From the NCBI GenBank assembly GCA_026387835.1, contig JAPLKZ010000004.1:16234-48233 (forward strand): a DNA stretch of 32,000 nucleotides, given 5' to 3'. Below, in pieces: positions 11,287 through 26,667 of this stretch. Under the pieces are notes generated by a model. That model did not search any database and was not told where the DNA came from. It saw nothing but the letters and a program-made list of their open reading frames with translations. This DNA comes from Candidatus Saganbacteria bacterium (GTDB lineage Bacteria; Margulisbacteria; WOR-1; JAKLHX01). The first letter of the stretch is position 1. Each line of letters opens with the position of its first letter. Both the position numbers and the translations under genes were made by a program.

Positions 11287-11871
11287 ATGCCTAAAAGTGC
11301 AATTATTAAGCAGAGGTTAAAGAATATAGGTGTTGAAAAATCCAACAATCTGATAATTTCAGCCGAAAGTATAGAAGGAAAGATATTTCTGAGCAGAGGT
11401 AGAAAAGTAATACTTGATGCAGATCTTGCATCATTTTACGGGGTATCTACCGGACGTTTAAATGAACAGGTGAAACGCAATATTAAAAGGTTTCCTGAGG
11501 ATTTTATGTTTCAGCTGACCCAGAACGAATACTTATCATTGCAAGATCTTTCTCCCGACTTGATATCGCAAAATGCGATGTCAAGTTATGGCGGCAGGAG
11601 ACATTACCCATTCGTATTTACTGAACAGGGAATAGCCATGCTTTCCGGCATTTTAAACAGCGAACGTGCCATCATGGTCAACATCGCCATTATGCGTGCG
11701 TTCGTGAAAATAAGACAGATAGTTTCTTTTAATAAGGAACTCGCACAAAAGTTTGCCGAGCTAGAACGCACGGTCGACCGTCATGACAAGGATATTATTG
11801 ATATCTTCAGGGCAATAAATAAAATAATAAAAGAAGAACAGAAGCCGAAGGCGAAGTTCGGGTTTATATAG
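11287..11871 (+). CDS. ORF6N (KilA-N-related) domain protein, phage/island-type DNA-binding protein
   Basis: Strong SD (AAAGGAGG) 6 nt upstream. The sequence LDADLASFYGVSTGRLNEQVKRNIKRFPEDFMFQLT ... GGRRHYPFVFTEQGIAMLSGILNSERAI matches my memory of the ORF6N family signature. Confidence 0.8.
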   Translation: MPKSAIIKQRLKNIGVEKSNNLIISAESIEGKIFLSRGRKVILDADLASFYGVSTGRLNEQVKRNIKRFPEDFMFQLTQNEYLSLQDLSPDLISQNAMSSYGGRRHYPFVFTEQGIAMLSGILNSERAIMVNIAIMRAFVKIRQIVSFNKELAQKFAELERTVDRHDKDIIDIFRAINKIIKEEQKPKAKFGFI

Positions 11872-11895: not shown

Positions 11896-12450
11896 TCAAG
11901 TATGTTTCTTCCCCTGTGCTATCCTCGGCATCCATCTTGGGACCTGTTCCATGTACTCCGAGTAATCTTTGCCGTATTTATTAAGCAGCAGTTTTTCTTC
12001 ATAGGCCGCGGCATAGTTATACCAGACCGCCGCAACGGCTGTCAGGAAAAAGGAAGCCATAGAAAAAGTGATGATTGACAGTCCCGCATACAGCAATATC
12101 GAACCTAAATATATTGGATGGCGCACATAAGCAAAAGGCCCCTGTCTTATTACCGAAGGGACCTCTCTTGTCTGAACGAAAACAATATTCAGCGCGCTTT
12201 TTGTCAGATATAGCCACAGGCATAACAACAATATCCCGCACAGGGCCCTAAGCAGTAACGGAACGCCTGCTGCAGCGGATGTTGTCATGTGGAGGAAGAA
12301 CGAGTCTGTTATCCATACGATAAGGAACACAATGATCATGGCGACCTGGACAGGATCGTTCAACGGATGCTCACCCGCAAGATCTTTCCTACCGGCCTGA
12401 TCAGATCTGCTATATATCTTTTTAAGCGGACTGTCTTCTGTTGTGTTCAT
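11896..12450 (-). CDS. Isoprenylcysteine carboxyl methyltransferase (ICMT)/phospholipid methyltransferase-family membrane protein
   Basis: Multi-pass hydrophobic protein with GPFAYVRHPIYLGSILLYAG and a C-terminal EEKLLLNKYGKDYSEYMEQVPRWMP, typical of the family. Confidence 0.75.
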   Translation of the reverse strand: MNTTEDSPLKKIYSRSDQAGRKDLAGEHPLNDPVQVAMIIVFLIVWITDSFFLHMTTSAAAGVPLLLRALCGILLLCLWLYLTKSALNIVFVQTREVPSVIRQGPFAYVRHPIYLGSILLYAGLSIITFSMASFFLTAVAAVWYNYAAAYEEKLLLNKYGKDYSEYMEQVPRWMPRIAQGKKHT

Positions 12451-12667
12451 CTCTTTGATTTTACATTAGTGCTCAATGGAGGGCAAGGTTTGACAATGCC
12501 ACCGGATTATATGAAAGCTAGTTTTTTAATTTGGGATTATCATATAACAAAAAAACGCCCTCTGGTGCGAACTCATGCTCAAATGCTTGGTTCGGAACGT
12601 CTGCCTTTTAACAAGGCTCCGACACCTTCAGGCGCAAATAAAATTATAGATCTGCCGCAAATGACTG

Positions 12668-13030
12668 TCAATCAGTATTCTTTGAATATTTGGTAAACAT
12701 ATTTGACGGTACTTTAACCCCGAAAGATTCGTGTTCATATCCCTGTTTGTCCACTCTCGTTAAATACAGGTGAATATGTTTGGTGTTCGATTCAATCGGT
12801 GTAATAGCACCTTTCTGCATAAAACCTTGCGCCATTTTCTCAAATATCTTCTCTTCCTCTTTATCCATAATTTTCTCCTCATTGGCTTTGGGGGGACGCG
12901 CATTTCCCCCATCAATGACTCCCGAAGGAGGCTTGGCAGACCGCTTCCTAACCTTCAAAGCCTTATAATAGTATACAATATTTTTACTAAACTCGATGAC
13001 ATCATTTGCCGGAGGGACGGTTGCCCCCAT
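12668..13030 (-). CDS. Hypothetical small protein (120 aa), last gene of the R-M operon
   Basis: The ATG at 13030 is preceded by AGGGG. The track start at 13036 is TTG. The gene lies ~23 nt downstream of the preceding gene on the same strand. It has a low-complexity Lys/Glu-rich centre and no recognisable domain. Confidence 0.45.
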   Translation of the reverse strand: MGATVPPANDVIEFSKNIVYYYKALKVRKRSAKPPSGVIDGGNARPPKANEEKIMDKEEEKIFEKMAQGFMQKGAITPIESNTKHIHLYLTRVDKQGYEHESFGVKVPSNMFTKYSKNTD

Positions 13031-13053
13031 TTGCAACCCCTAACCGTTCATTT

Positions 13054-14085
13054 TCATTTGGCACTATTCAACCCTCCTCTTCCTGCTGCCTGATATAACT
13101 CCTGAAATGTAAAACTTCTTGCACCCATAGCCCCATGTATTCCAAGTTTCCCCTTAGATATTGGCGTCAGAAATGCCTGGAATGGTTCCCCTAATAACAA
13201 GATCATCAATTCAGGGCTTCTGGTTTCATTGTATATTTCCTTTACAGCTTCTTTGTATTTATTGTGCCCTTTAGACTTTAAATATTCTTTTATTCCACTT
13301 CTTCTTAATACCTGAATATCTAATATTGGCGCTATCCAGGCTATTCCCGGCTCTATTTTTATCATTGATCTTTCTGCGAAGTCCTTTGGTGCACGACCAG
13401 TTAAATATGGAGCAAAATACATATTCCCCTGAGCCGACTTGAAGAATTTTGTTTGACTTTTATAAATATGATACTTAAAGAACAATTCAACTGAATCACC
13501 TTGTAGATCCCTCACATATACTTCCTTACGTTTTTTACTGCTCATATTATTTACCTCCATATAATTTTTAAATTCTTTTGCTATGTAATAAGCTGATTCA
13601 TCGATCGCTTTTGAGCTTTTGAATCTTAACAATTTAACGAATTCCTTATGAATGTCACTCCATGTAACATATTTTATCTCAACTCTCTTGGGAAGGCCCT
13701 CTTTAATATCTCGAATCCAACTCGTTGATTTATAAGAACCGTAATCGAGTAAATATAATGTCGTTCTTTTTTTACTTTTAACAATATTTTTAATATATCT
13801 TGCAATTTGTCTTTTCCTTTGTTTAAAATCGAGCTTTGCCTCAATGATGATATTTCTTCTGTCGGTCTCCATCACGATATCGTAGCGATCACTCTTTTGT
13901 GCGAAGTGCTCAATTCTTATCTTTATTATATGTTCTCTCTTTTCAAGAAAGATATTACCAATGCGATCTGGGAACATTTTTATAAAATATGCTATATAAG
14001 CGGTTAAGTTCGTCTCCTTCAGCTCACTTACTGCTGAAAAGAAGTTGTTTATATTTTCGGAGCCTCTTGTAAGTTCAATCGGCAT
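13054..14085 (-). CDS. Hypothetical protein with an N-terminal PD-(D/E)xK nuclease-like motif and an unknown C-terminal domain
   Basis: Its ATG at 14085 overlaps the hsdR stop (14075-14077) by 11 nt. The motif YDIVMETDRRNIIIEAKL gives a D...ExK spacing typical of restriction-endonuclease-fold proteins. The C-terminal ~150 aa are unassigned. Confidence 0.6.
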   Translation of the reverse strand: MPIELTRGSENINNFFSAVSELKETNLTAYIAYFIKMFPDRIGNIFLEKREHIIKIRIEHFAQKSDRYDIVMETDRRNIIIEAKLDFKQRKRQIARYIKNIVKSKKRTTLYLLDYGSYKSTSWIRDIKEGLPKRVEIKYVTWSDIHKEFVKLLRFKSSKAIDESAYYIAKEFKNYMEVNNMSSKKRKEVYVRDLQGDSVELFFKYHIYKSQTKFFKSAQGNMYFAPYLTGRAPKDFAERSMIKIEPGIAWIAPILDIQVLRRSGIKEYLKSKGHNKYKEAVKEIYNETRSPELMILLLGEPFQAFLTPISKGKLGIHGAMGARSFTFQELYQAAGRGGLNSAK

Positions 14086-17056
14086 TCTTCGTCACCTTTT
14101 TACTTACATAATCGAACAATTTCTGATTAACATATTCCTTCAAATCAATATTAGAGTCAAGCTTTTTATAGAAATCAAAATGCTGATTCAACATATTGAT
14201 CAGCTCCTGTTGAAAGATTTCATCAAACTTTATCTTTGCTACATCACGGGCATTGTTTTGTATGGATCCGCTCAATGATTCATTGTCTAATAGCTTTTTC
14301 CCTAAATTGTTCAATATAACCCTATCGTCTGTGCTAAAAGTTGTCCCAAATTTATCGTTAATATCCTTAATGATCCTCGAAAGCATGTCCAATTCATCCT
14401 GAGATTTGCCTCGCCCTGCTCCTTCAATTGGCCTGATCAACCCCTGTTCATCTTCAAGGAATATCCTGGTTTCTTTATCTTTGATGACCTTATATGATTC
14501 CATGTCAATACTTTGAAGTATTTCCCATGGAAGAGGATTCTTCCTCGCCGGCAATTTCTTATACAGATTCCTAAGAAAGATATAAAGTTTCTCAAGCCTC
14601 GTATCCTCAAAGGTTATTATTTGCGCGATAAACGCGTATTTTCTTATATAATCAATGAACTTGACGCGCATATCATCCTGTTCCTCCGGCAGATAATGCG
14701 CAAATCTCTCCGCAACAACATCAAGGAAACTGTTTAATTGGGCCGGACTTTTTCCTAGATAAAGCAACTCCACAAAGTTATCAATCTCGGCTTCGCTAAA
14801 TAGCCTGAAATTTAATATATCTCTTTGCAGATCGTGTAATAAATTGGGGTCCGTAGATTCCGAAAGGACGGTTGACACATAATAGGGCTGAAAAGATTCT
14901 TTAATATCGTCAGTATCGTTGACGAAATCCAGGACAAATACCTCATCTTTGTTAGGACATACCCTGTTTAATCGGCTTAATGTTTGCACAGCGTTTACTC
15001 CGCCAAGCTTTTTATCAACATACATAACCGAAAGCAGAGGTTGATCAAAGCCCGTTTGGAACTTATCCGCGCATATCAAGAATTTATATTCAGATTTTTT
15101 GAACTCTTCAGCCGTGTTCTTTTCAGGGATGCCGCCGTTCATCTGTTGTTCGGCATATTCAAGCTTACCGTCCTTCACCTTTCCCGAAAATGCCACCAAA
15201 GCTTTAAAGGGGTATCCTTTTTCTTTCAAATATTTATCCATGGCGATTTTAAATCGCACTGCATGCAGTCTCGATCTTGTTACTATCATTGCTTTTGCGT
15301 TGCCGTTTATCTGATGTGAAATATTTTTGGCAAAATGATCGGATATTATCGAAACCTTCTTATTTATTGCGTGCTCATGCTTCTCAACATAATTTAGAAG
15401 CATGCGCTGAGCTTTTTTCTTTTCATATTCAGGATCGTTCTCAATCTTCTTAATCAATGAGAAATAGACCTGGTATGTCGTGTAATTTTTTAACACATCA
15501 AGGATAAAGCCCTCCTCGATCGCCTGTTTCATCGAATAAAGACTAAAAGGATAGAATTTATTGTCAACAGGGCTCTTATCGCCGAAAACCTCAAGTGTCT
15601 TTTGTTTTGGAGTGGCTGTAAAGGCAAAAAAGCTTATTGTATTGGATTTTGATCTTCTTCCCCGCATTTCTTTGAGGATCATGTCTTCAAGTGTTTCTTC
15701 TTTGCTTGTATCATCCTCTCTTTCCGCCTCTTCCAGGGTCTCTTCTTCGTTTTCTTTACCCGAAGATTTGAGCACTATTTTCAGCCCTTTTGAGCTTTCT
15801 CCGCTTTGGGAGGAATGGGCTTCGTCAATTATCACGGCAAACTTTTTCCCGGGCAATTCATCGACAACTCCAACGATGAAAGGGAATTTTTGCAATGTTG
15901 TAGTTATAATCTTTTCACCGGCTTCAAGTGCTTCCTTTAATTCTTTTGAACCTTCTATTATCGGCTTTACCACACCGGCTGTCTGTTCAAACTGCATTAT
16001 TGTATTGCGCAGCTGCCTGTCTAAGACTCTTCTGTCTGTAACAACTATTACAGAATCAAATACTTTCTGATCTTCGCTATTGTGAAGCGCGGAAAGTCGG
16101 TGAGCTGTCCATGCGATCGTATTGCTTTTTCCGCTTCCCGCACTATGCTGGATTAGATAGTTTTTGCCAGCCCCGTTTTCTCTTGAATCCGCCACAAGCC
16201 TTTTAACCGTATCCAGCTGATGATATCTTGGAAAAATTAATGTCTCTTCCGTATATTTTTTGCCTTTTTGGTCTTCCTTCTCATCCTTTTGAATGTTCAC
16301 GAACCGGCCTACGAGCTCAAGAATGCTATCAGGAGATAACACTTCTTCCCAAAAGTAATGCGTTTTATATTTGCCTTCCGCGACAGGGTTTCCGGCGGAA
16401 TTATTATTGCCCTTATTGAATGGCAGGAATCTGGTCCTTAATCCCTCGAGCTTCGTTGTCATAAATACGACCTCAGTATCAACCGCGAAATGAGTCAGGC
16501 ATCGTTTGAATGAAAGAAGCTTTTCTCTCGGATCACGGTCTGTTTTGTACTGCATTATGCCATTCTTTACCGATTGGCCCGTCAACTGATTCTTGAGTTC
16601 TATCGTGAATATGGGCAATCCATTAATAAAGATCACCATATCTATTGAATTTTCGTTCTTTTCACTATATTTCAATTGCCGGACAACACTAAAGATGTTG
16701 GAATTATACTTTTGCAGTGTCTCTTCATTCAGCTTTGTTTCCGGCTTGAAATACGCGAGGTCAAATTTAATCCCATGATCATTTATTCCGCTGCGGAGCA
16801 CTTCCAATATCCCCCGCGCCCTTATTTCCTCGTCCAACCTCTTAAAAAACCGATTTTCCGCATCTTCCCCATGCTGATCAAGCAGTTTCTTCCATTCTTT
16901 ACTCTGTGTTTTCTTGATAAACCCGATGACTGTATCTTTGTCAAAACAAATCGCTTTATCAAAGTCGCCTGGTTTCAGTTTGCAATATGACTGGCTACTA
17001 ATAAGATGTTTTTCAATAAATTCTTCGAAACCGAGTTCTTTTGTATTAGTTATCAT
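14075..17056 (-). CDS. hsdR: Type I restriction endonuclease, R subunit
   Basis: 993 aa. The N-terminal nuclease motif is DMVIFINGLPIFTIELKNQ. Helicase motif I is HSAGSGKSNT and motif II is VIIDEAHSSQSG. It sits in one operon with hsdM and hsdS. Confidence 0.93.
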   Translation of the reverse strand: MITNTKELGFEEFIEKHLISSQSYCKLKPGDFDKAICFDKDTVIGFIKKTQSKEWKKLLDQHGEDAENRFFKRLDEEIRARGILEVLRSGINDHGIKFDLAYFKPETKLNEETLQKYNSNIFSVVRQLKYSEKNENSIDMVIFINGLPIFTIELKNQLTGQSVKNGIMQYKTDRDPREKLLSFKRCLTHFAVDTEVVFMTTKLEGLRTRFLPFNKGNNNSAGNPVAEGKYKTHYFWEEVLSPDSILELVGRFVNIQKDEKEDQKGKKYTEETLIFPRYHQLDTVKRLVADSRENGAGKNYLIQHSAGSGKSNTIAWTAHRLSALHNSEDQKVFDSVIVVTDRRVLDRQLRNTIMQFEQTAGVVKPIIEGSKELKEALEAGEKIITTTLQKFPFIVGVVDELPGKKFAVIIDEAHSSQSGESSKGLKIVLKSSGKENEEETLEEAEREDDTSKEETLEDMILKEMRGRRSKSNTISFFAFTATPKQKTLEVFGDKSPVDNKFYPFSLYSMKQAIEEGFILDVLKNYTTYQVYFSLIKKIENDPEYEKKKAQRMLLNYVEKHEHAINKKVSIISDHFAKNISHQINGNAKAMIVTRSRLHAVRFKIAMDKYLKEKGYPFKALVAFSGKVKDGKLEYAEQQMNGGIPEKNTAEEFKKSEYKFLICADKFQTGFDQPLLSVMYVDKKLGGVNAVQTLSRLNRVCPNKDEVFVLDFVNDTDDIKESFQPYYVSTVLSESTDPNLLHDLQRDILNFRLFSEAEIDNFVELLYLGKSPAQLNSFLDVVAERFAHYLPEEQDDMRVKFIDYIRKYAFIAQIITFEDTRLEKLYIFLRNLYKKLPARKNPLPWEILQSIDMESYKVIKDKETRIFLEDEQGLIRPIEGAGRGKSQDELDMLSRIIKDINDKFGTTFSTDDRVILNNLGKKLLDNESLSGSIQNNARDVAKIKFDEIFQQELINMLNQHFDFYKKLDSNIDLKEYVNQKLFDYVSKKVTKNAD

Positions 17057-17415
17057 TAGCCCACATCCAAAGGATGATAATTTTGCTTATTAATACCTTT
17101 CAATTGAGTATTCAGCTTGCTTCTTTCGTCTGCTGACATATTATCAATCCACACACCAAATTTAATCCTACTAACAGTAGAATTCTTATTATCTCGATTT
17201 ATGTCCCCGCCTGCTTCAACAAACTGCAATACTTTCACCCCTGCCTTCCCGGACTTTGAGGTTGTTTCTTCAACTGATACCGCAATATCAAATTCTACAT
17301 GTCGATTTTCTGGACTTCCGTATATTTCGATTATTTGATGTGCTTCTATTGTAGCCTCCTTAACTGCCGAAGTTATATCCACTAGCACTTTCTTGATAAA
17401 TTCTTTAAGTTCCAT
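17056..17415 (-). CDS. Small protein (119 aa) resembling the trypco2-type (trypsin-co-occurring domain 2) conflict-system domain
   Basis: It overlaps the upstream gene by 11 nt, and its stop overlaps the hsdR ATG (TAATG). The layout is an N-terminal helix (LKEFIKKVLVDITSAVKEA) followed by VEFDIAVSVEETTSKSGKAGVKVLQFVEAGGD...STVSRIKFGV. That matches my memory of trypco2. The assignment is not verified. Confidence 0.5.
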   Translation of the reverse strand: MELKEFIKKVLVDITSAVKEATIEAHQIIEIYGSPENRHVEFDIAVSVEETTSKSGKAGVKVLQFVEAGGDINRDNKNSTVSRIKFGVWIDNMSADERSKLNTQLKGINKQNYHPLDVG

Positions 17416-18391
17416 GATTATTGATCTCCTTTTGTTTTGCTAAGTATGACAGAACAAAGTCCTTCCATTTTTCGTACCAGTACCATCTGTCTGGTAATTG
17501 AAAACCATATCCTTTTGATGTCTCCTTTGCATTATGTTGTTTCCATATTCTATAGTGTTTTGCAATATTAAAATCATCGAATCCTGCCTTATGAGCTTCT
17601 TCAACGATATTTTTAGGCAAGTACTTCCTTTTCTCAGTTTCCTCTTTAACCCAGTATTCTCTCTTGATATTTTCGGCAAGGGGTGATTTAGGATCAAGAA
17701 ATTCAATTACTCGATCAGCCTGCCCTGCTCTTTTTGCTATGACCTTTGTAAATAATATTCTATAGGCATATCTTTCGCTTATGATTTGATCTTCAGATAA
17801 TGTACTATCAAATTTAGCTATATATGATTTTATCTCCTGTGGTATTTTATTGTCTTTATCCCTAATAGTTTTTGATTGTGAATAATCAAGCTCAGCAAAT
17901 TGCAAGCTCAATGCCAACATATTGTCCAATCCATGTCTATCACCGAATAGTTTTTTGATGTAATAGTTAAAGTTTATTGCACACGCCTGATATCTAGCAG
18001 ATAGGTACGAATCCAAATGGTTAGCTTTCCTATGCTCAATTTGATTTCTTAACCCTATTAGAAATTTGAGATTATTAGTCGTGTCAACATCAAGAGGGCG
18101 GTTTTCTTCATCGAGACAACTTGTTAAATCCCAATATTTAACACTACCATCTTTATTCTTTTTAAACTTTTTCCTTTTGTTTCTCTTCTCATAATATCTG
18201 TAATCTATCGATTTACTCCTATAGTACGCGTGAAGAAGATATGTCCAGGCAATCATGAAGAGCACAATAAAAGACTCCGACTTAAATGTTGTTAGAGGAT
18301 TGTTATATATTTGAACAGCAGCCAGAGCAGATTCTCTCGCTTTATTGATTAAATCAACTTTTTCGGAATACAGATGTCTTTCCTTTGACAT
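17405..18391 (-). CDS. DUF3644-like protein (328 aa) embedded between hsdS and hsdR
   Basis: The ATG at 18391 lies 5 nt after the hsdS stop and directly follows AGGGGGA. The N-terminal ALAAVQIYNNPLTTFKSESFIVLFMIAWTYLLHAYY resembles the DUF3644/Abi-like helical N-domain signature as I recall it. The assignment is not verified. Confidence 0.5.
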   Translation of the reverse strand: MSKERHLYSEKVDLINKARESALAAVQIYNNPLTTFKSESFIVLFMIAWTYLLHAYYRSKSIDYRYYEKRNKRKKFKKNKDGSVKYWDLTSCLDEENRPLDVDTTNNLKFLIGLRNQIEHRKANHLDSYLSARYQACAINFNYYIKKLFGDRHGLDNMLALSLQFAELDYSQSKTIRDKDNKIPQEIKSYIAKFDSTLSEDQIISERYAYRILFTKVIAKRAGQADRVIEFLDPKSPLAENIKREYWVKEETEKRKYLPKNIVEEAHKAGFDDFNIAKHYRIWKQHNAKETSKGYGFQLPDRWYWYEKWKDFVLSYLAKQKEINNHGT

Positions 18392-18396
18392 TCCCC

Positions 18397-19719
18397 CTAC
18401 ACCTCCACCTTCCCCGTCACTACATTTGAAATGATTGAGGATTTGTATTCTTGAAGCAGGGATATCGATTTGCCAATTTTATCTGCAAGAGCATCAACTT
18501 TGGACAGCTCATTCTTAATGTGTTCCGATATTTGTTCTTGGATATTTGTATCGGGAAATGCAATTCGAATATTCCCGATAAAATCCCAGCTGGCTCTTGG
18601 CATTTTTGCCCCATATGTAGAGTTGTCAACAAGTGATAAGAAGTCATCTGAAAGGACTCGACAAAAGAGATATTGTGAATTAATTTTATCCCTCCGTGGC
18701 TCCATGACAAGCAGTTCGCCGGTACAGATACCATCAAAATCCGGAAGAAGTGCTTTTGCCAGATATGGCCTTAATTTATTAAAAAGTACATCCCCAAGCT
18801 GAAATTCATTCGTTATGCTGTCTGGGTCTTGTTCAATTTCACTCTCCAAATATCGACCTGTAAAACTTTCAATGTTTTCTAATGCGAGATATTTCTTGTT
18901 GTTATCTGGGCTCTGACTTCTACGGAGATTTACAATATACTTCAACTTCTCCACCCGCCACCCCTCCGGCACTTTCCCGATCCACTCAATCCCGCTATCA
19001 ACAAGTTTGGCTTTTGAATCAAGCCCTCTTGTCACCGCCTGATTTATCACCGCCGCACGCTTTTCTTTGAGGAGCTCAATTAGCTTGCGTTTTTGTTCTA
19101 ATATTTGATCAATCAAGGCGGTTTTTTGGTCAAGGAATGAGACAATGTGCGATTGAATTTCTATAGCTTGCGTGGGAATTACTACTTGATTAATGGTTCC
19201 CCGGGAAATATTAACAAGTCCTGAGCTTGTTAGCCCCAAATAATTTATTTGCTCTCTTCCTAATACATTATTTAAGATGTAATAGAGTAACTTTGGATTT
19301 ATTTCTTTATTGACTCTGAGCCTTTGAATAAAGTTTGAAAAGACGCACCCATCACTAGCAACTTCTTTTGTGACAATAGCAGTTTTACCAATATGATACT
19401 CACTTCCACTAGATTTAACGATGAGAAGATCGCCCTCCAGCAATTTTGCTTTCTCGATTTCTAATTTGCTTAATAATCTTGTTGCAGGGTTATCGATTTT
19501 TAGATCCCCATCCATATCGATCTCAGTGGACCTTAATACAATTGTCCCCTGTCCAAGCGGATCATCATCACCCCAAACCCCACCATCGTTATTAATAAGT
19601 TTATGTATTAGTCGATCAGATTTCCACGTACCGGGAATCTTTCCAATCCATTCAATTCCTGAATCTTTGTATTCAGGATATCTTTTGTGCTGTTTTTTGA
19701 ATTTGATTGTTTGTGCCAT
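18397..19719 (-). CDS. hsdS: Type I R-M specificity subunit with two target-recognition domains
   Basis: 440 aa with duplicated half-structure. SGIEWIGKIPGTWKSDRL and SGIEWIGKVPEGWRVEKL open the two TRDs. The conserved central helix is LIDQILEQKRKLIELLKEKRAAVINQAVTRGLD, and the C-terminal helix is LLQEYKSSIISNVVTGKV. Confidence 0.92.
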   Translation of the reverse strand: MAQTIKFKKQHKRYPEYKDSGIEWIGKIPGTWKSDRLIHKLINNDGGVWGDDDPLGQGTIVLRSTEIDMDGDLKIDNPATRLLSKLEIEKAKLLEGDLLIVKSSGSEYHIGKTAIVTKEVASDGCVFSNFIQRLRVNKEINPKLLYYILNNVLGREQINYLGLTSSGLVNISRGTINQVVIPTQAIEIQSHIVSFLDQKTALIDQILEQKRKLIELLKEKRAAVINQAVTRGLDSKAKLVDSGIEWIGKVPEGWRVEKLKYIVNLRRSQSPDNNKKYLALENIESFTGRYLESEIEQDPDSITNEFQLGDVLFNKLRPYLAKALLPDFDGICTGELLVMEPRRDKINSQYLFCRVLSDDFLSLVDNSTYGAKMPRASWDFIGNIRIAFPDTNIQEQISEHIKNELSKVDALADKIGKSISLLQEYKSSIISNVVTGKVEV

Positions 19720-19721
19720 AT

Positions 19722-21755
19722 TTATAACTGCTTTAATAACTCCAAAAGCTCATTCTCGACCTTCTCAATATCCGTCTCGATCTCTTCAAGTGGTCTTGGT
19801 GGGGCATATTTGTAGAAATACCTCGTCAAAGGTATCTCATAGCCCACCTTTCCGATCTTTCCGTCCTTATGATCCCTGACATTTTCGTTTATCCATGCGT
19901 CAGGAACATATGGCTTTACTTCTTTTAAGAAATATTCATGGATATCCTGGCCATACGGCACATTTTCCGTATCTCTCAACTCGCTGTCCGGCTCAATATT
20001 TCCTTCTTTATCCTTGCATGGATCCGCAGTATCATCTCTCTCTGACAACTCCTGCCAGATAATCTTAAATATATTAGCCAGAACGTTAATCTTTGACTTC
20101 TCAAGTATCCTTTCTATATCAGTTATGAATTCTTCGCGATTTTTATACAGTATCTTTGGAGCATTATCCAAGCATAAAATAATATTGTCCCTTAACCTTT
20201 GCCATTCTTTGTTTTCCTTATCGCCGGCGGCACCTTTCTTCTTGCTTGGGGTGTCATTTGAGAATGTTTTGTTTTCCTGAAGCCTTTTCATTCGTTCTTC
20301 ATTCACCTGGAAGTTAAGCTTAAGCGGCCGCTCGATCACTATCTGCCTATACGCAAAATCCGTAGTTTTTAATGTTTTTGAATGTTCACTCTCTGCATAG
20401 CGTTTGTAGATATCGTAAATATCTTTCCTGTTTGCAGGAGATATCATGTTCCTCTTATTCCCGAGCGATTTCCTCATTTTTTCATAAAATGACCTCGCAT
20501 CGATCAACTGCACCTTGCCTTTTCGTTTTGCGTCCTTTCTATTAGTCAAGAACCACAGATAAGTATTAATGCCCGTGTTATAGAATAATTGGTCCGGTAA
20601 AGCCACTATCGCCTCAAGCAGATCCTTTTCAAGGATCCATCGTCTTATTTCGCTTTCTCCCGAACCTGCATCCCCAGTAAAAAGCGGAGAACCATTTAAA
20701 ACGATCGCGATACGGGATCCGCCATCGCTCGGATTTCGCATCTTTGAGATCAAATGTTGAAGGAAAAGCAGCTGTCCGTCAGATATTCGCGGAAGACCCG
20801 CACCAAATCTGCCCGCATAACCCCGCTCCGCCTCTTTTTCGACCGCTTCCTTGTCCTTTTTCCAGTCAACACCGTAAGGAGGATTAGTCAGACAATAGTC
20901 AAATGAGGTTCCTGCAAATTGTTCGCAGGAAAGCGTACTTGCTTTTGTGTTGTCCTTGTCGCCGCCTTTGATATTATCCGGATTTTCAGCCTTTATCATC
21001 ATGTCTGATTTGCAGATCGCGTATGTTACGGGATTTAATTCCTGTCCGTATAGGTAAATGGCAGCTTTCTCATTTATATTCTCTAATATATGATCTTTGC
21101 TTACAGTAAGCATACCGCCGGTACCGCAGCAACAGTCGTAAACAGTTCTAATTTTATGTTTTTGTTTGAGCTGCTCTTTATCCGGAGCAAATAGTATCTC
21201 AACCATAACTTTAATAACTTCCCTCGGAGTGTAATGTTCTCCTGCGGTTTCGTTCGATTGCTCATTGAATTTTCTTATTAATTCCTCGAAAATATAACCC
21301 ATTTCGTGATTGCTAACCGTTTCGGGATGCAGGTCTACTTTATTGAACTCCTTTATTATGAGGTATAGAAGGTTGCCGCCTTCAAGACGCGACAGCTGTT
21401 TTTCAAAGTCGAATTTTGCAAAGATTTCCTTAACGTTGTCGCTATAACCATTTATATGGTGGCGTAAATTCTTCGCTATATTCTTCGGATCTTCAAGAAG
21501 CTTTTCAAAATCATATGGCGAGATATTGTAGAAGCCCAGGCTTGATGCCTTCAATATTGGATCAATGTTAACTTTACCTTTGTATTTATTATGCTGAGCC
21601 ATGATCTTTTCTTTTACCTTTGAAAAGATCGAGTCAAGACGTTTGAGCACGACTAAAGGAAGGATCACATCTTGATATTCATGTTGTTTCCAGCCCCCTC
21701 GCAGTAGCTCAGCTATATTCCAGATTAATCCCGCTTTTGTATTGAAATTGTTCAT
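19722..21755 (-). CDS. hsdM: Type I R-M N6-adenine DNA methyltransferase subunit (long form, 677 aa)
   Basis: HsdM_N-like N-terminus (LIWNIAELLRGGWKQHEYQDVILPLVVLKRLD). SAM-binding motif I is DCCCGTGGML. Catalytic motif IV is LTNPPYG. A GGAGG SD lies upstream. Confidence 0.93.
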   Translation of the reverse strand: MNNFNTKAGLIWNIAELLRGGWKQHEYQDVILPLVVLKRLDSIFSKVKEKIMAQHNKYKGKVNIDPILKASSLGFYNISPYDFEKLLEDPKNIAKNLRHHINGYSDNVKEIFAKFDFEKQLSRLEGGNLLYLIIKEFNKVDLHPETVSNHEMGYIFEELIRKFNEQSNETAGEHYTPREVIKVMVEILFAPDKEQLKQKHKIRTVYDCCCGTGGMLTVSKDHILENINEKAAIYLYGQELNPVTYAICKSDMMIKAENPDNIKGGDKDNTKASTLSCEQFAGTSFDYCLTNPPYGVDWKKDKEAVEKEAERGYAGRFGAGLPRISDGQLLFLQHLISKMRNPSDGGSRIAIVLNGSPLFTGDAGSGESEIRRWILEKDLLEAIVALPDQLFYNTGINTYLWFLTNRKDAKRKGKVQLIDARSFYEKMRKSLGNKRNMISPANRKDIYDIYKRYAESEHSKTLKTTDFAYRQIVIERPLKLNFQVNEERMKRLQENKTFSNDTPSKKKGAAGDKENKEWQRLRDNIILCLDNAPKILYKNREEFITDIERILEKSKINVLANIFKIIWQELSERDDTADPCKDKEGNIEPDSELRDTENVPYGQDIHEYFLKEVKPYVPDAWINENVRDHKDGKIGKVGYEIPLTRYFYKYAPPRPLEEIETDIEKVENELLELLKQL

Positions 21756-21765
21756 TTTGCCTCCA

Positions 21766-22905
21766 TTACTTTTTAAATAGATTAATATACTCTGTTAAAG
21801 AGAATATTCTGTTTCTTGAATAACCTGTCTTTTCTTTGAATAATCCCAGTTTTTCAAACTCTTTTGCCAATGTACTCGCTGTCTGGAATGTCACAGGAAT
21901 CATTTTTCCAATTTCATGTACTGTTACCGTCGGTTTAGAGAACAGCTTATGAAGAAGCTGCTTGCCGAGCTTTTGCCGTTTTATCCCCATCCCAGACTCA
22001 ATATTATCCTCATATTTTCTGCGCAATACAATTATTTTCTCAAATGTTTCTTTCCCCTTTTTAGCTGTTTCCGCAACTCCCGAAAGAAAGAACCTAATCC
22101 ATTGTTCAAGATCATTTGAGACCCGCACCTTTGACAGGGCATCATAATATTGAATTCTATTCTTTTCGAAGTAATCTGACAGATAAAGTGTGGGCTTCTT
22201 TAATATTCCCAAGCTTACAAGATGAAGCGTTATTAACAGCCTTCCTATTCTGCCGTTGCCATCAAGAAATGGATGGATAGTTTCAAATTGATAATGAACT
22301 AAAGCCGTTTTGATGATATCCGGTATATTTGTCTTATCATTATGAATGAATTTCTCGAGATCTCCCATTAGGTCATTCAATTCATTATATTGTGGAGGCA
22401 CAAATGAAGCCTCCTCGATCGTTCGGCCACCTATCCAGTTTTGCCTAATCCTAAACTCCCCAGGATTTTTGCTGTATCCGCGAACCCCAGACAATAATAT
22501 GCCGTGTGCGTCTTTTATCAACCTTATTGAAACCGGCAGATGACGCAACTGCTCTATCGCATGGTTAATTGCTTTGATATAATTTTGAACTTCACTCCAG
22601 TCGTCCCTTTTATCAGGATCAACATCATTTTTGGGCAATAAAGCCTCATCAATGTTGGTTTTGGTACCTTCTATTTGGCTTGATTGTGTAGCTTCCTTTA
22701 AAACGTGCATTTTGATAAAAAAGTCAACATCAGGGACTAGCGTGGAATAGGCGTCAAGCTCACCCAAGTACCGCATCGCTTGTGCTAATAACAGATCGAT
22801 CTTCTTGTCCTGCCAGTCAAATGGTTGGTTTATAGATGTAGGAGTAAAGGTTTTATGCTTTCCTTGACTCTTATAATGGCCTGCGATATACTTTGAATAC
22901 TTCAT
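21766..22905 (-). CDS. fic: Fic-family protein (AMPylase-type) with an N-terminal inhibitory motif and a C-terminal winged-helix-like region
   Basis: The Fic core motif is [18 protein letters not shown] matches the (S/T)xxxE(G/N) intramolecular inhibitory helix motif. The track start at 22938 is a TTG lying inside the predicted promoter/TSS. I prefer the ATG at 22905 ([11 protein letters not shown]), which is preceded by AAGGCGGA. Confidence 0.85.
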
Positions 22906-22912
22906 AATCCGC

Positions 22913-22940
22913 CTTTGAATACTATTATTTATATTCAAAG
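22913..22940. promoter_or_regulatory. Palindromic operator-like site O2: CTTTGAATA-N10-TATTCAAAG (perfect), overlapping the -10/TSS and 5'UTR
   Basis: Read directly from the sequence. The half-sites are 22913-22921 and 22932-22940. An additional half-site CTTTGAATA sits at 22891-22899, inside fic codons 3-5 (counted from the 22905 ATG). Confidence 0.55.
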
Positions 22941-22967
22941 TATAACACTTTAGATTGAATATGTCAA
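22939..22967 (-). promoter_or_regulatory. Sigma70-type promoter of the fic-hsd operon
   Basis: The minus strand reads TTGACA-17 nt-TATACT, with -35 at 22967-22962 and -10 at 22944-22939. This lies ~34 nt upstream of the fic ATG at 22905. Confidence 0.65.
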
Positions 22968-22980
22968 GGTATATTCAAAG
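22953..22980. promoter_or_regulatory. Palindromic operator-like site O1: gaTTGAATA-N10-TATTCAAAG (7/9 + 9/9), overlapping the -35
   Basis: It has the same 9-N10-9 geometry as O2 and is displaced by exactly 40 bp. The half-sites are 22953-22961 and 22972-22980. Confidence 0.5.
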
Positions 22981-22988
22981 ATTATTGC

Positions 22989-23945
22989 TCACCCAAAATC
23001 CACCACCTGAAACGCATTCGTCTCCTTCTTCCCTATATGCTCCATCGTCATATATTCTTTTCTGAAAGGGTCCGTCTGCCAGTATTTGAAGAAGGCATCC
23101 GGCTTTTTAAACTTTGAGAATATAAACCGCGCTGTTTTTGTGGCCCGGTCCATTATCGCAGGGATCTCCTTGAAATCAAAAGGATGCACATCAAAGATGC
23201 CAGGATTGATGATCCTTACTGCTATTTTTTTCTTCAAGAAGATATCATCATTGATATATCTGTTGATCTGTGAAAAAGAGGTCGTCAAATCCAGACATTG
23301 CATGAAAACGTCCATGATGTTCTTTTTGTTAAAATCCCCTTTAACTTGACCACAATAGCCCAGATCGCACGCGATAATCCTTTTAACCCCCGCAATCCTT
23401 GCCGCAACCGATATTGGGCAGTTTTCTCTGATCCCGCCGTCGGCAAGAGCCATAACTTTGTTACCAATCTTTATTTTTTTGGGTTTAAAGATAACAGGGA
23501 ATGATATTGACGCTTCAAGGGCCTCGGTCAGTCGACAGTCGTCTGTAGACTGACGACTGCCAAATATTACTTGCTTCCCCGAATTCAAGTCCGTCGCCGT
23601 AATATAGACCGGCTTCTTTAGATCTCTGAATGTCATCCCCGTGAATCCCGCTTCTTTAGCGATAAGGTCGATGGTTTCCTTTGATTCAAGCAACCCGGCA
23701 TGCGAGAACAGGTCAAACGCGAGCATCTGCGGCCATATATGCTTCTTTATAAATTTAAGCGATATCTCTTTGACTGTCTTAGGCTCGTCGTAAAGACCGA
23801 GCATCACTGCAAACACCGCACCTATCGATGTGCCAACGAAGATATCGGGGACATATCCCTTTTTATACATTTCCTCGGCAATGCTTATATGTGCGGCGCC
23901 TTTGACGAAGCCGCCGGAGAGGACGAGGGCAAGGTTATTTTTCAT
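22989..23945 (-). CDS. Patatin-like phospholipase
   Basis: The oxyanion motif is SGGFVKG, the nucleophile elbow is GTSIG (GxSxG) and the catalytic Asp motif is ADGG. The track start at 23984 is TTG. I prefer the ATG at 23945 (MKNNLALVLSGG). Confidence 0.85.
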   Translation of the reverse strand: MKNNLALVLSGGFVKGAAHISIAEEMYKKGYVPDIFVGTSIGAVFAVMLGLYDEPKTVKEISLKFIKKHIWPQMLAFDLFSHAGLLESKETIDLIAKEAGFTGMTFRDLKKPVYITATDLNSGKQVIFGSRQSTDDCRLTEALEASISFPVIFKPKKIKIGNKVMALADGGIRENCPISVAARIAGVKRIIACDLGYCGQVKGDFNKKNIMDVFMQCLDLTTSFSQINRYINDDIFLKKKIAVRIINPGIFDVHPFDFKEIPAIMDRATKTARFIFSKFKKPDAFFKYWQTDPFRKEYMTMEHIGKKETNAFQVVDFG

Positions 23946-24095
23946 GATTATCTGAATTATGTAATATTTATCCGGAAATATCAATTATGCTTGCAGACTA
24001 AATATGCCTTGACTGTGCTAATATTTAAAGCTGCCATAAAAAAGTCTTAAAAAAACCGTTAAATTATCGGTATATAGTAATAAGGAGGGGTTGCG

Positions 24096-26179: not shown

Positions 26180-26416
26180 ATGAATCCAAAAACAATGATA
26201 AAAGAGATCATAAACGGAGTAAAAACGCTTCCCGAAAGGCAGATGAGATCGGTGGTTGATTTCATTACATATATACGTGAAAAGGAAACAGAAGAAAACA
26301 TTTTGAACTCAAAGACTATAATCAATGCTGTAAAAAGATCAAAAAAAGCCTGGGATAATGGGAAAACCGCTGATTTTACTTCTTGGGAACAAATAAAGAA
26401 AAAGAACAATATCTGA
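26180..26416 (+). CDS. Type II antitoxin candidate (DUF2281-like N-terminus)
   Basis: AAGGAG SD upstream. 78 aa. Its stop overlaps the toxin start (TGATG). The N-terminal IKEIINGVKTLPERQMRSVVDFITYIREKE resembles DUF2281-type antitoxins. Confidence 0.65.
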   Translation: MNPKTMIKEIINGVKTLPERQMRSVVDFITYIREKETEENILNSKTIINAVKRSKKAWDNGKTADFTSWEQIKKKNNI

Positions 26417-26667
26417 TGTTCAGGATCTTATTCCATAAGACCGCGGAAAAGAAATTCTCTAGACTGGATAAGCCGACGCAGAACCGCATTGCAAAAGCGA
26501 TAGATGCGATCTCGATAAATCCTAAACTCGGTACTGCCTTGCACGGCGCTCTTAAGGGAAGTTATCGTATCAGAATAGGCGATTTCCGGGTGATCTACGA
26601 AATAATCGAGAAGGAACAGATTGTTCTTGTCCATGCCATCGGCAGCCGCGGCGACATCTATAAATAG
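26416..26667 (+). CDS. RelE/ParE-family type II toxin (83 aa)
   Basis: MFRILFHKTAEKKFSRLDKPTQNRIAKAI ... YRIRIGDFRVIYEIIEKEQIVLVHAIGSRGDIYK is the family signature. The track start at 26383 would overlap the antitoxin. The ATG at 26416 gives the classical 1-nt stop/start overlap. Confidence 0.85.
   Translation: MFRILFHKTAEKKFSRLDKPTQNRIAKAIDAISINPKLGTALHGALKGSYRIRIGDFRVIYEIIEKEQIVLVHAIGSRGDIYK

Follow-up and report, generated by a model that had tools for sequence, protein, structure and literature searches.

A probable composite defence operon built on a restriction-modification system of Type I in Candidatus Saganbacteria

Embedded defence genes and the Saganbacteria locus

Defence genes that lie within the operons of other defence systems have been described under the term 'guilt-by-embedding' for Type I restriction-modification (R-M), BREX, DISARM and Hma operons, and 96.7% of the embedded genes have the same orientation as their host system (Payne et al., 2024, 10.1101/2024.01.29.577857). 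TgvAB is embedded in the Type I R-M system of the Vibrio cholerae pathogenicity island VPI-2 (PMC11411939), and DarTG2 is found in a Type I R-M system together with the regulator RptR in a seven-gene island of enteropathogenic Escherichia coli (PMC12255303). In the PrrC-EcoprrI system, the anticodon nuclease PrrC is kept latent by a Type I R-M enzyme. Here, we analysed a window of 32,000 nucleotides (nt) from a Candidatus Saganbacteria metagenome-assembled genome, in which the genes of a Type I R-M system are accompanied by five additional genes. We consider it probable, though far from settled, that this block is a composite defence operon, in which independent modules are stacked on a Type I scaffold and transcribed together.

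The block comprises eight consecutive open reading frames (ORFs), which are arranged head to tail on the minus strand between positions 12668 and 22938 according to the ORF table, and has a GC content of 35-42%, compared with 45-52% in the flanking regions. In the direction of transcription, it codes for a Fic AMPylase, HsdM, HsdS, a DUF3644 protein of 328 amino acids (aa), a 119-aa protein, HsdR, a 343-aa protein and a 120-aa ORF (Table 1). Gaps of 10, 2 and 5 nt separate fic from hsdM, hsdM from hsdS and hsdS from the DUF3644 gene, respectively. These are followed by an 11-nt overlap between the DUF3644 and 119-aa genes, a 1-nt overlap (TAATG) between the 119-aa gene and hsdR, an 11-nt overlap between hsdR and the 343-aa gene and a gap of 23 nt, or 17 nt if measured from a TTG start, in front of the 120-aa ORF. 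The same eight-gene order is present in contigs of at least 10 metagenome samples with an identical 119-aa protein. HsdM matches PF02384 (210 bits), PF12161 (74 bits) and the PADLOC model MTase_I (900 bits), and HsdS contains two target-recognition domains and matches the PADLOC model Specificity_I with 296 bits over residues 10-440. The score of HsdR for TIGR00348 is below the cut-off (208 versus 285 bits). Judged by their domains, HsdM, HsdS and HsdR are predicted to be a complete Type I system. A preliminary description, made from the letters of this DNA, had reported the same packed ORFs and junctions and had recognised, among closely spaced genes of one orientation, a Type I R-M operon with additional genes of defence type, which is supported here, and its domain labels agree with our domain calls.

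The closest relative of the block is a locus from a metagenomic lineage (L092; surveyed loci carry the prefix L), whose HsdR shares 94% amino acid identity with that of the window. L092 retains the genes fic-hsdM-hsdS-DUF3644-119aa-hsdR with the same junctions and has approximately 84% nucleotide identity (83-85%) to window positions 14092-22977. The ratio of nonsynonymous to synonymous substitution rates is 0.03-0.06 for all six genes except hsdS (0.029 for fic, 0.047 for the DUF3644 gene and 0.059 for the 119-aa gene), which shows that the six-gene core from fic to hsdR is under purifying selection. hsdS is the sole diverged gene of the conserved block (window 18458-19632 versus L092 4873-6030), with only patchy nucleotide homology and 40% amino acid identity of its product, compared with more than 90% for the neighbouring proteins. 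This divergence indicates that the two systems probably differ in specificity, through swapping of target-recognition domains between the lineages. The 343-aa and 120-aa genes are absent from L092 and other cargo is present in their place, as hsdR is followed at L092 10397-13094 by a DUF4268 gene, which overlaps hsdR by 29 nt, a patatin orthologue and a RiboL-PSP HEPN gene. In further relatives, the same slots are occupied by NYN, DUF2441, Shedu SduA_C, DUF3800 or PDDEXK_1 genes or a second Fic gene. With only six genes kept in L092, the idea that all eight form one conserved unit is rejected.

In 40 of the 58 non-redundant hsd operons of this family, inserts that exceed 300 nt lie between the hsd genes. 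Among 80 IMG/VR loci coding for HsdR proteins with 39-49% identity, Fic is encoded in four, a DUF3644 protein in one and the 119-aa protein in none, and a metagenome scan with HsdR alone returned two loci only. Elsewhere, fic genes accompany hsd genes in L011/L023, L024, L025, L044, L062, L092, L117 and L132, and DUF3644 genes in L092 and L114. The expected co-occurrence of the accessory genes with hsd genes holds for four of the five, since Fic, DUF3644, 119-aa and 343-aa genes recur elsewhere, and fails for the 120-aa ORF, which is an orphan. As a set, the five co-occur only in this population, and each is mostly found in other contexts. The six-gene core, the exchangeable 3' slot and the independent distributions of the accessory genes together favour stacked, independent modules over other arrangements.

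We propose that independent defence-type genes were inserted at the gene junctions and at both ends of a Type I R-M scaffold, and that the promoter upstream of fic probably serves all of the genes. The R-M core would restrict unmethylated DNA, the Fic AMPylase would act as a SoFic-type defence, and the DUF3644 HEPN protein could be an effector of RNase type that depends on its Rx4H site, like HEC-08. The 119-aa protein might form an oligomeric beta-barrel, which damages the membrane once its C-terminal tail is removed, and the 343-aa nuclease-ASCH fusion might attack modified DNA not caught by the Type I enzyme. Embedding would provide co-regulation and co-transfer, and no obligatory physical partnership is implied. 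One promoter appears to drive five modes of attack, namely restriction of unmodified DNA, an RNase-type effector, an AMPylase and, as the two probable ones, a nuclease for modified DNA (343-aa protein) and a membrane pore (119-aa protein).

As in the guilt-by-embedding operons, the additional genes are co-oriented and located between or beside the hsd genes, relatives differ in their cargo and one of the proteins matches PDC-S19; however, the combination found in the block is not listed as a multi-gene candidate in that catalogue. The block shares with PrrC-EcoprrI the presence of a toxin-type gene inside an hsd operon, but its accessory genes mostly occur without hsd genes. Family scans detected no ABC-ATPase/anticodon-nuclease protein and no ATPase domain in any of the accessory proteins. 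TgvAB and BrxU, the latter from BREX, place a modification-dependent nuclease beside a modification-blocked system, a role that the 343-aa candidate would fit. Whereas TgvAB and BrxU are GmrSD-type proteins (DUF262/DUF1524), the 343-aa protein is predicted to combine a PD-(D/E)xK nuclease with an ASCH-like domain and is encoded after hsdR and not inside the operon. The block also resembles the DarTG2/RptR island in that it consists of multiple ORFs with one upstream promoter and combines R-M with embedded toxin-type genes, but neither DarTG nor an RptR-like regulator was found in the block. The locus adds a member and not a concept, as such stacking of cargo in Type I operons is already known from model bacteria, and it shows in clean natural form how defences are stacked in the barely studied phylum Saganbacteria. 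The earlier remark that this is not a named system was overstated, as the Fic protein matches SoFic, the DUF3644 protein corresponds to PDC-S19 of PADLOC and embedding itself has been described. The least expected element is a protease-less Pepco-like family, that of the 119-aa protein, which is recurrently captured by Type I operons.

Accessory proteins and features of the block

The Fic protein matches the PADLOC model of SoFic, a catalogued defence gene, over its full length (384 bits, residues 27-389). Its catalytic motif at position 211 fits HxFx(D/E)GNGRxxR and the inhibitory motif SSQIEG at position 75 fits (S/T)xxxE(G/N). With 166.6 bits, it does not reach the cut-off of 550 bits of the NCBIfam equivalog NF046030, and we classify it, by these sequence matches, as a SoFic relative and not as an equivalog. 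DUF3644 has been described as a HEPN family present in R-M operons (Anantharaman et al., 2013, PMC3710099), and two single-gene systems are based on it, the anti-phage defence HEC-08, for which the HEPN histidine is required (10.1101/2024.01.29.577857), and the DUF3644/HEPN anti-plasmid defence Ishtar (10.64898/2026.07.06.735840). The DUF3644 protein of the block matches the PDC-S19 model PDLC04948 end to end (434 bits, positions 2-323 of 325). Like HEC-08 and Ishtar, it has a DUF3644 HEPN domain in its N-terminal part, which carries an Rx4-6H motif, here the Rx4H sequence RNQIEH at residues 115-120, but it differs from HEC-08 in that its residues 198-328 contain no cysteine.

The residues D69, E82-x-K84 and Q93xxxY97 are invariant in the family of the 343-aa protein and make up a PD-(D/E)xK core. 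Its AlphaFold2 model (mean confidence, pLDDT, of 84) was matched by Foldseek to the ASCH structure 5gus (E 1e-4, probability 1.0, TMt 0.55), to the N-terminal domain with which S. marinus McrB reads modified bases (6n0s, E 1e-3), to MspJI (4f0p, E 8e-3) and to PD-(D/E)xK nuclease folds in BFVD. No ASCH match was found at the sequence level, and the PADLOC candidates PDC-S26 and PDC-M15A were matched weakly, over the nuclease domain. A nuclease joined to a PUA-like reader is a layout typical of modification-dependent restriction enzymes, and the model suggests that the 343-aa protein is a candidate Type IV-like, that is modification-dependent, nuclease. The family is rare, with 17 homologues, and was seen in three contexts: after an N6_N4 methyltransferase gene, together with TIR and AAA_21 ATPase genes in an island and, in L091, directly upstream of a further Type I operon rich in cargo. 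An ORF6N (KilA-N-like) gene is located near the 343-aa gene (window 11287-11871, plus strand), and the homologue in L089/L090 is flanked by several ORF6N genes and a Bro-N gene (L089 4830-5967 and 11108-12512). These surroundings may reflect a shared mobile-element context. The only homologue of the 120-aa ORF among 5.8 billion clusters is the ORF itself, and it is also absent from L092.

Table 1. Positions of the block's genes, of the adjacent patatin gene and of promoter-like sites in the window.
Feature	Position	Strand	Match or evidence
Perfect sigma-70 consensus, TTGACA-17-TATAAT, overlapping the 3' end of the 120-aa ORF	12643..12671	-	12/12 matches
120-aa orphan ORF, doubtful functional part	12668..13030 (ORF 12668-13036, ATG 13030)	-	no family match
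343-aa PD-(D/E)xK nuclease with predicted ASCH-like C-terminal domain, variable 3' cargo	13054..14085	-	PDDEXK_4 (PF14281), 24.2 bits
hsdR, restriction/translocase subunit, 993 aa	14075..17056	-	HSDR_N, SWI2_SNF2/ResIII, T1R_D3; PADLOC REase_I
119-aa Trypco2/Pepco-like mini-protein, embedded cargo	17056..17415	-	Trypco2, 17.6 bits
DUF3644 HEPN protein, 328 aa, embedded cargo	17405..18391	-	PF12358, 185 bits, above threshold
hsdS, specificity subunit, 440 aa	18397..19719	-	Methylase_S, two stretches
hsdM, Type I methyltransferase, 677 aa	19722..21755	-	HsdM_N + N6_Mtase
Fic AMPylase, SoFic-like, 379 aa	21766..22905	-	Pfam Fic_N + Fic
Promoter-like site TTGACA-17-TG-TATACT, probable operon promoter	22967..22939	-	11/12 matches and extended -10 TG
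Patatin-like phospholipase, adjacent, travels with the block	22989..23984	-	Pfam Patatin, 93 bits

The 119-aa family and its genomic contexts

Pepco/Trypco2 is a 117-aa toxin, which is pre-assembled as a beta-barrel pore and activated when an adjacent protease cuts after a conserved isoleucine residue and thereby removes a charged tail (Evans et al., 2025, 10.1101/2025.11.14.688446). The 119-aa family resembles Pepco (Trypco1/Trypco2; Evans et al., 2025; Kaur et al., 2020, PMC7159879) in its size of approximately 117 aa, in its family-level match to Trypco2 and in a conserved core that is followed by a variable charged C-terminal tail. PF19631 (Trypco2) is matched by 41 of 47 family members with E values of 0.1 or below (best 3.9e-6), and three homologues carry precomputed PF19631 hits. 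We regard the 119-aa protein as a putative divergent member of Trypco2/Pepco, with an own score below the threshold. The family has 193 homologues with a mean column identity of 61% (alignment A1), and a profile search with A1 yielded 404 representative clusters with E values of 1e-10 or below and 3030 with values of 1e-3 or below, the best 150 matches all being small proteins. Its members are mainly found in Patescibacteria/candidate phyla radiation (CPR) bacteria, Saganbacteria/WOR-1, Omnitrophota and some Proteobacteria, whereas Pepco is known from actinobacteria and cyanobacteria, and the embedding in R-M operons is a further difference from Pepco. The core is conserved up to the motif SRIKFGVxI(D) at around residue 91, ahead of the variable tail, and an isoleucine or valine is conserved at position 90, which is only suggestive of a Pepco-type cleavage site.

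The AlphaFold2 monomer model of the 119-aa protein has a pLDDT of 62.6 with a disordered segment at residues 49-79, and no match to this poor model was found by Foldseek, as one would expect of a fold that is adopted only on oligomerisation. The only sequence matches in the PDB, to uL24, were judged to be due to chance. PADLOC v2 contains no model for the family and gave only a 13.6-bit match to LmuC, PHROGs returned nothing informative for the 119-, 120- or 343-aa proteins, and plasmid and phage collections each gave one weak match to the 119-aa protein. Viral relatives with 30-40% identity (L174-L184, IMG/VR) are located by genes for a terminase large subunit, Mu F-like protein, DnaB and RhuM, and a distant relative is encoded in a Porphyromonas phage (BK068089.1 892-1215).

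A survey anchored on the 119-aa gene covered 67 genome loci, of which approximately 60 are independent. The gene lies inside a Type I operon in about 15 of the 60 independent loci (~25%) and outside in about 45. In a second Type I clade, separate from that of the window, it follows hsdM (L044, L045, L049) and is directly followed by hsdS in L036, L037, L045 and L049. Outside Type I operons, a recurrent cassette combines a 119-aa homologue with a MazG-like protein and an SLFN-group-3 helicase (L027 10001-12757, L030 10001-12750, L067 7776-10348), and other contexts include a C5 methyltransferase with a SinI endonuclease (Type II R-M), AbiEii, RhuM and YhcG genes and phage terminase regions. In five CPR and Bdellovibrionales-type genomes, the gene immediately follows dnaK, and grpE lies upstream at a distance of a few genes (position ~10001 in L047, L053 and L055, ~4509 in L050 and ~3687 in L051). 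hsp20 and sigma-70 genes adjoin family members in other genomes, and the family is also found after gyrA and metabolic genes.

Two proposals for the role of the 119-aa gene were rejected. A toxin-antitoxin-like cassette formed with the DUF3644 gene is not borne out, as DUF3644 is a neighbour in none of the approximately 60 loci and only in the near-identical L092. The 119-aa protein is also not a fourth core subunit, as it is missing from all 80 HsdR relatives mentioned above and from L093 and is encoded at the hsdM/hsdS position in the other clade. The useful new lead provided by the locus is this small Pepco-like family, which is highly conserved across phyla, absent from PADLOC and present in two Type I clades; it is a candidate new single-gene defence and could reveal how a pore of the Pepco type is triggered when no dedicated protease is present.

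Transcription, alternative explanations and flanking genes

The best promoter-like site of the block precedes fic, and the homology to L092 reaches position 22977. The -10 element of this site abuts the TTG codon at 22938, so that ATG 22905 is the true start of fic, and the same start was chosen by independent gene calls on contigs with identical proteins. GGAGG-type ribosome-binding sites are present ahead of hsdM and the DUF3644, 119-aa and 343-aa genes, and those of hsdS and hsdR are weak, so that translation of these two genes appears to rely on coupling. No terminator-like sites or hairpins were found on the minus strand within the block. From the spacing, the one strong promoter and the lack of predicted terminators, we infer a single transcript. 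The alternative that the block forms more than one transcription unit, with hsdR and possibly the 3' cargo having their own promoters, is compatible with any of the other explanations and seems doubtful to us. Classical Type I systems express hsdR apart from hsdMS, the cargo at the 3' end can be exchanged, and a promoter-like match with 10 of 12 positions lies just upstream of hsdR (17103..17074), with further matches inside the block, making internal promoters possible. However, overlaps or gaps of at most 11 nt at five junctions leave no intergenic room, and the internal matches are near chance, since 52 promoter-like matches were counted versus 38.4 in shuffled sequence (standard deviation 5.3), slightly above expectation. 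The perfect consensus at the 3' end of the 120-aa ORF probably drives the next gene, which codes for an ICMT/PEMT-like methyltransferase (11896-12450), and marks where the block ends on its 3' side.

Several points weigh against stacked, independent modules. Co-transcription is a prediction, and the placement of the 119-aa gene in the window's R-M clade is constant: in the nearest relatives (L011/L023, L020, L024, L025, L062) it always directly precedes hsdR, often overlapping it, with the order hsdM-hsdS-119aa-hsdR in L020 and L024, which could reflect functional coupling instead of chance insertion. With regard to the proposed pore, the Trypco2 score of the 119-aa protein is below the cut-off of 24.2 bits, and, unlike for Pepco, no trypsin-, caspase- or subtilisin-type protease is encoded nearby in the block or in approximately 70 loci. 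The sole protease domain near the family is an S24 (LexA-like) peptidase, which forms the C-terminal part of the helicase in L027 and probably also in L030. The tight coupling of the 119-aa gene to hsdR in one clade is the main point in favour of an integrated guard of the PrrC/EcoprrI type, in which the Type I complex holds one or more accessory toxins (the Pepco-like, HEPN or Fic protein) inactive until a phage anti-restriction protein disables the complex, leading to release of the toxin and abortive infection. Translational coupling at the 119aa/hsdR and DUF3644/119aa junctions, both kept in L092, the strong enrichment of the 119-aa family in Type I operons and the precedent of PrrC, whose embedding is almost confined to Type I systems, speak for such a guard. 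On the other hand, about 75% of the 119-aa homologues have no hsd neighbour, the gene lies between hsdM and hsdS in the second Type I clade, it is missing from the 80 HsdR relatives, the DUF3644/119aa pair is confined to the window and L092, and the ABC-ATPase plus anticodon-nuclease architecture of PrrC is present in no accessory protein, and we therefore think a guard unlikely.

Some of the accessory genes might not serve immunity at all and could be selfish modules for addiction or stabilisation or, in case of the 119-aa protein, stress-related hitch-hikers. The location of family members downstream of dnaK and beside hsp20, sigma-70, gyrA and metabolic genes would fit this, as would the frequent occurrence of Fic and HEPN domains in toxin-antitoxin modules and a ParE-type pair in the vicinity. 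We judge this to be quite improbable: the 119-aa gene has entered two Type I clades by repeated, independent insertion, at junctions that differ, and also lies beside Type II R-M, AbiEii, RhuM, YhcG and SLFN-helicase genes, such embedding signatures predicted defence genes of which 7 out of 9 were validated, and relatives of SoFic and the DUF3644-HEPN protein have experimental anti-phage or anti-plasmid activity. For the 119-aa protein itself, one might speculate that it belongs to a protease-less Pepco/Trypco2 branch, which was repeatedly captured by Type I operons in CPR, Saganbacteria and Omnitrophota and acts as an abortive-infection effector without a dedicated sensor-protease trigger. 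In that case, the pore could be set off by a protease, either a phage's or a housekeeping one, or by the state of the R-M complex itself. Although we regard this as rather unlikely, it would, if true, mean that pre-assembled pores can be licensed in a novel way and that R-M operons host a class of embedded defence genes which is new and missing from current catalogues. No link between Pepco and R-M was found in the literature searched.

A patatin-like phospholipase gene is located directly upstream of fic on the same strand, outside the region covered by the preliminary description. It is intact, with GTSIG, GGFVKG and DGG motifs, and travels with the R-M block, being upstream of fic in the window and on the opposite side in L092. 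Genes for a ParE-type toxin (83 aa) and its 78-aa upstream partner are present on the plus strand at approximately 26180-26667 of the window, as mapped from L001 749-1236, and this pair is found together with HD-domain and TPR proteins between the defence block and leuA. On the other side of the block, the plus strand between positions 1145 and 8095 codes for three consecutive large paralogues of 917, 691 and 719 aa with DUF4116 repeats (up to 13 copies) and HEAT repeats, and the GC skew of this region is strongly positive.

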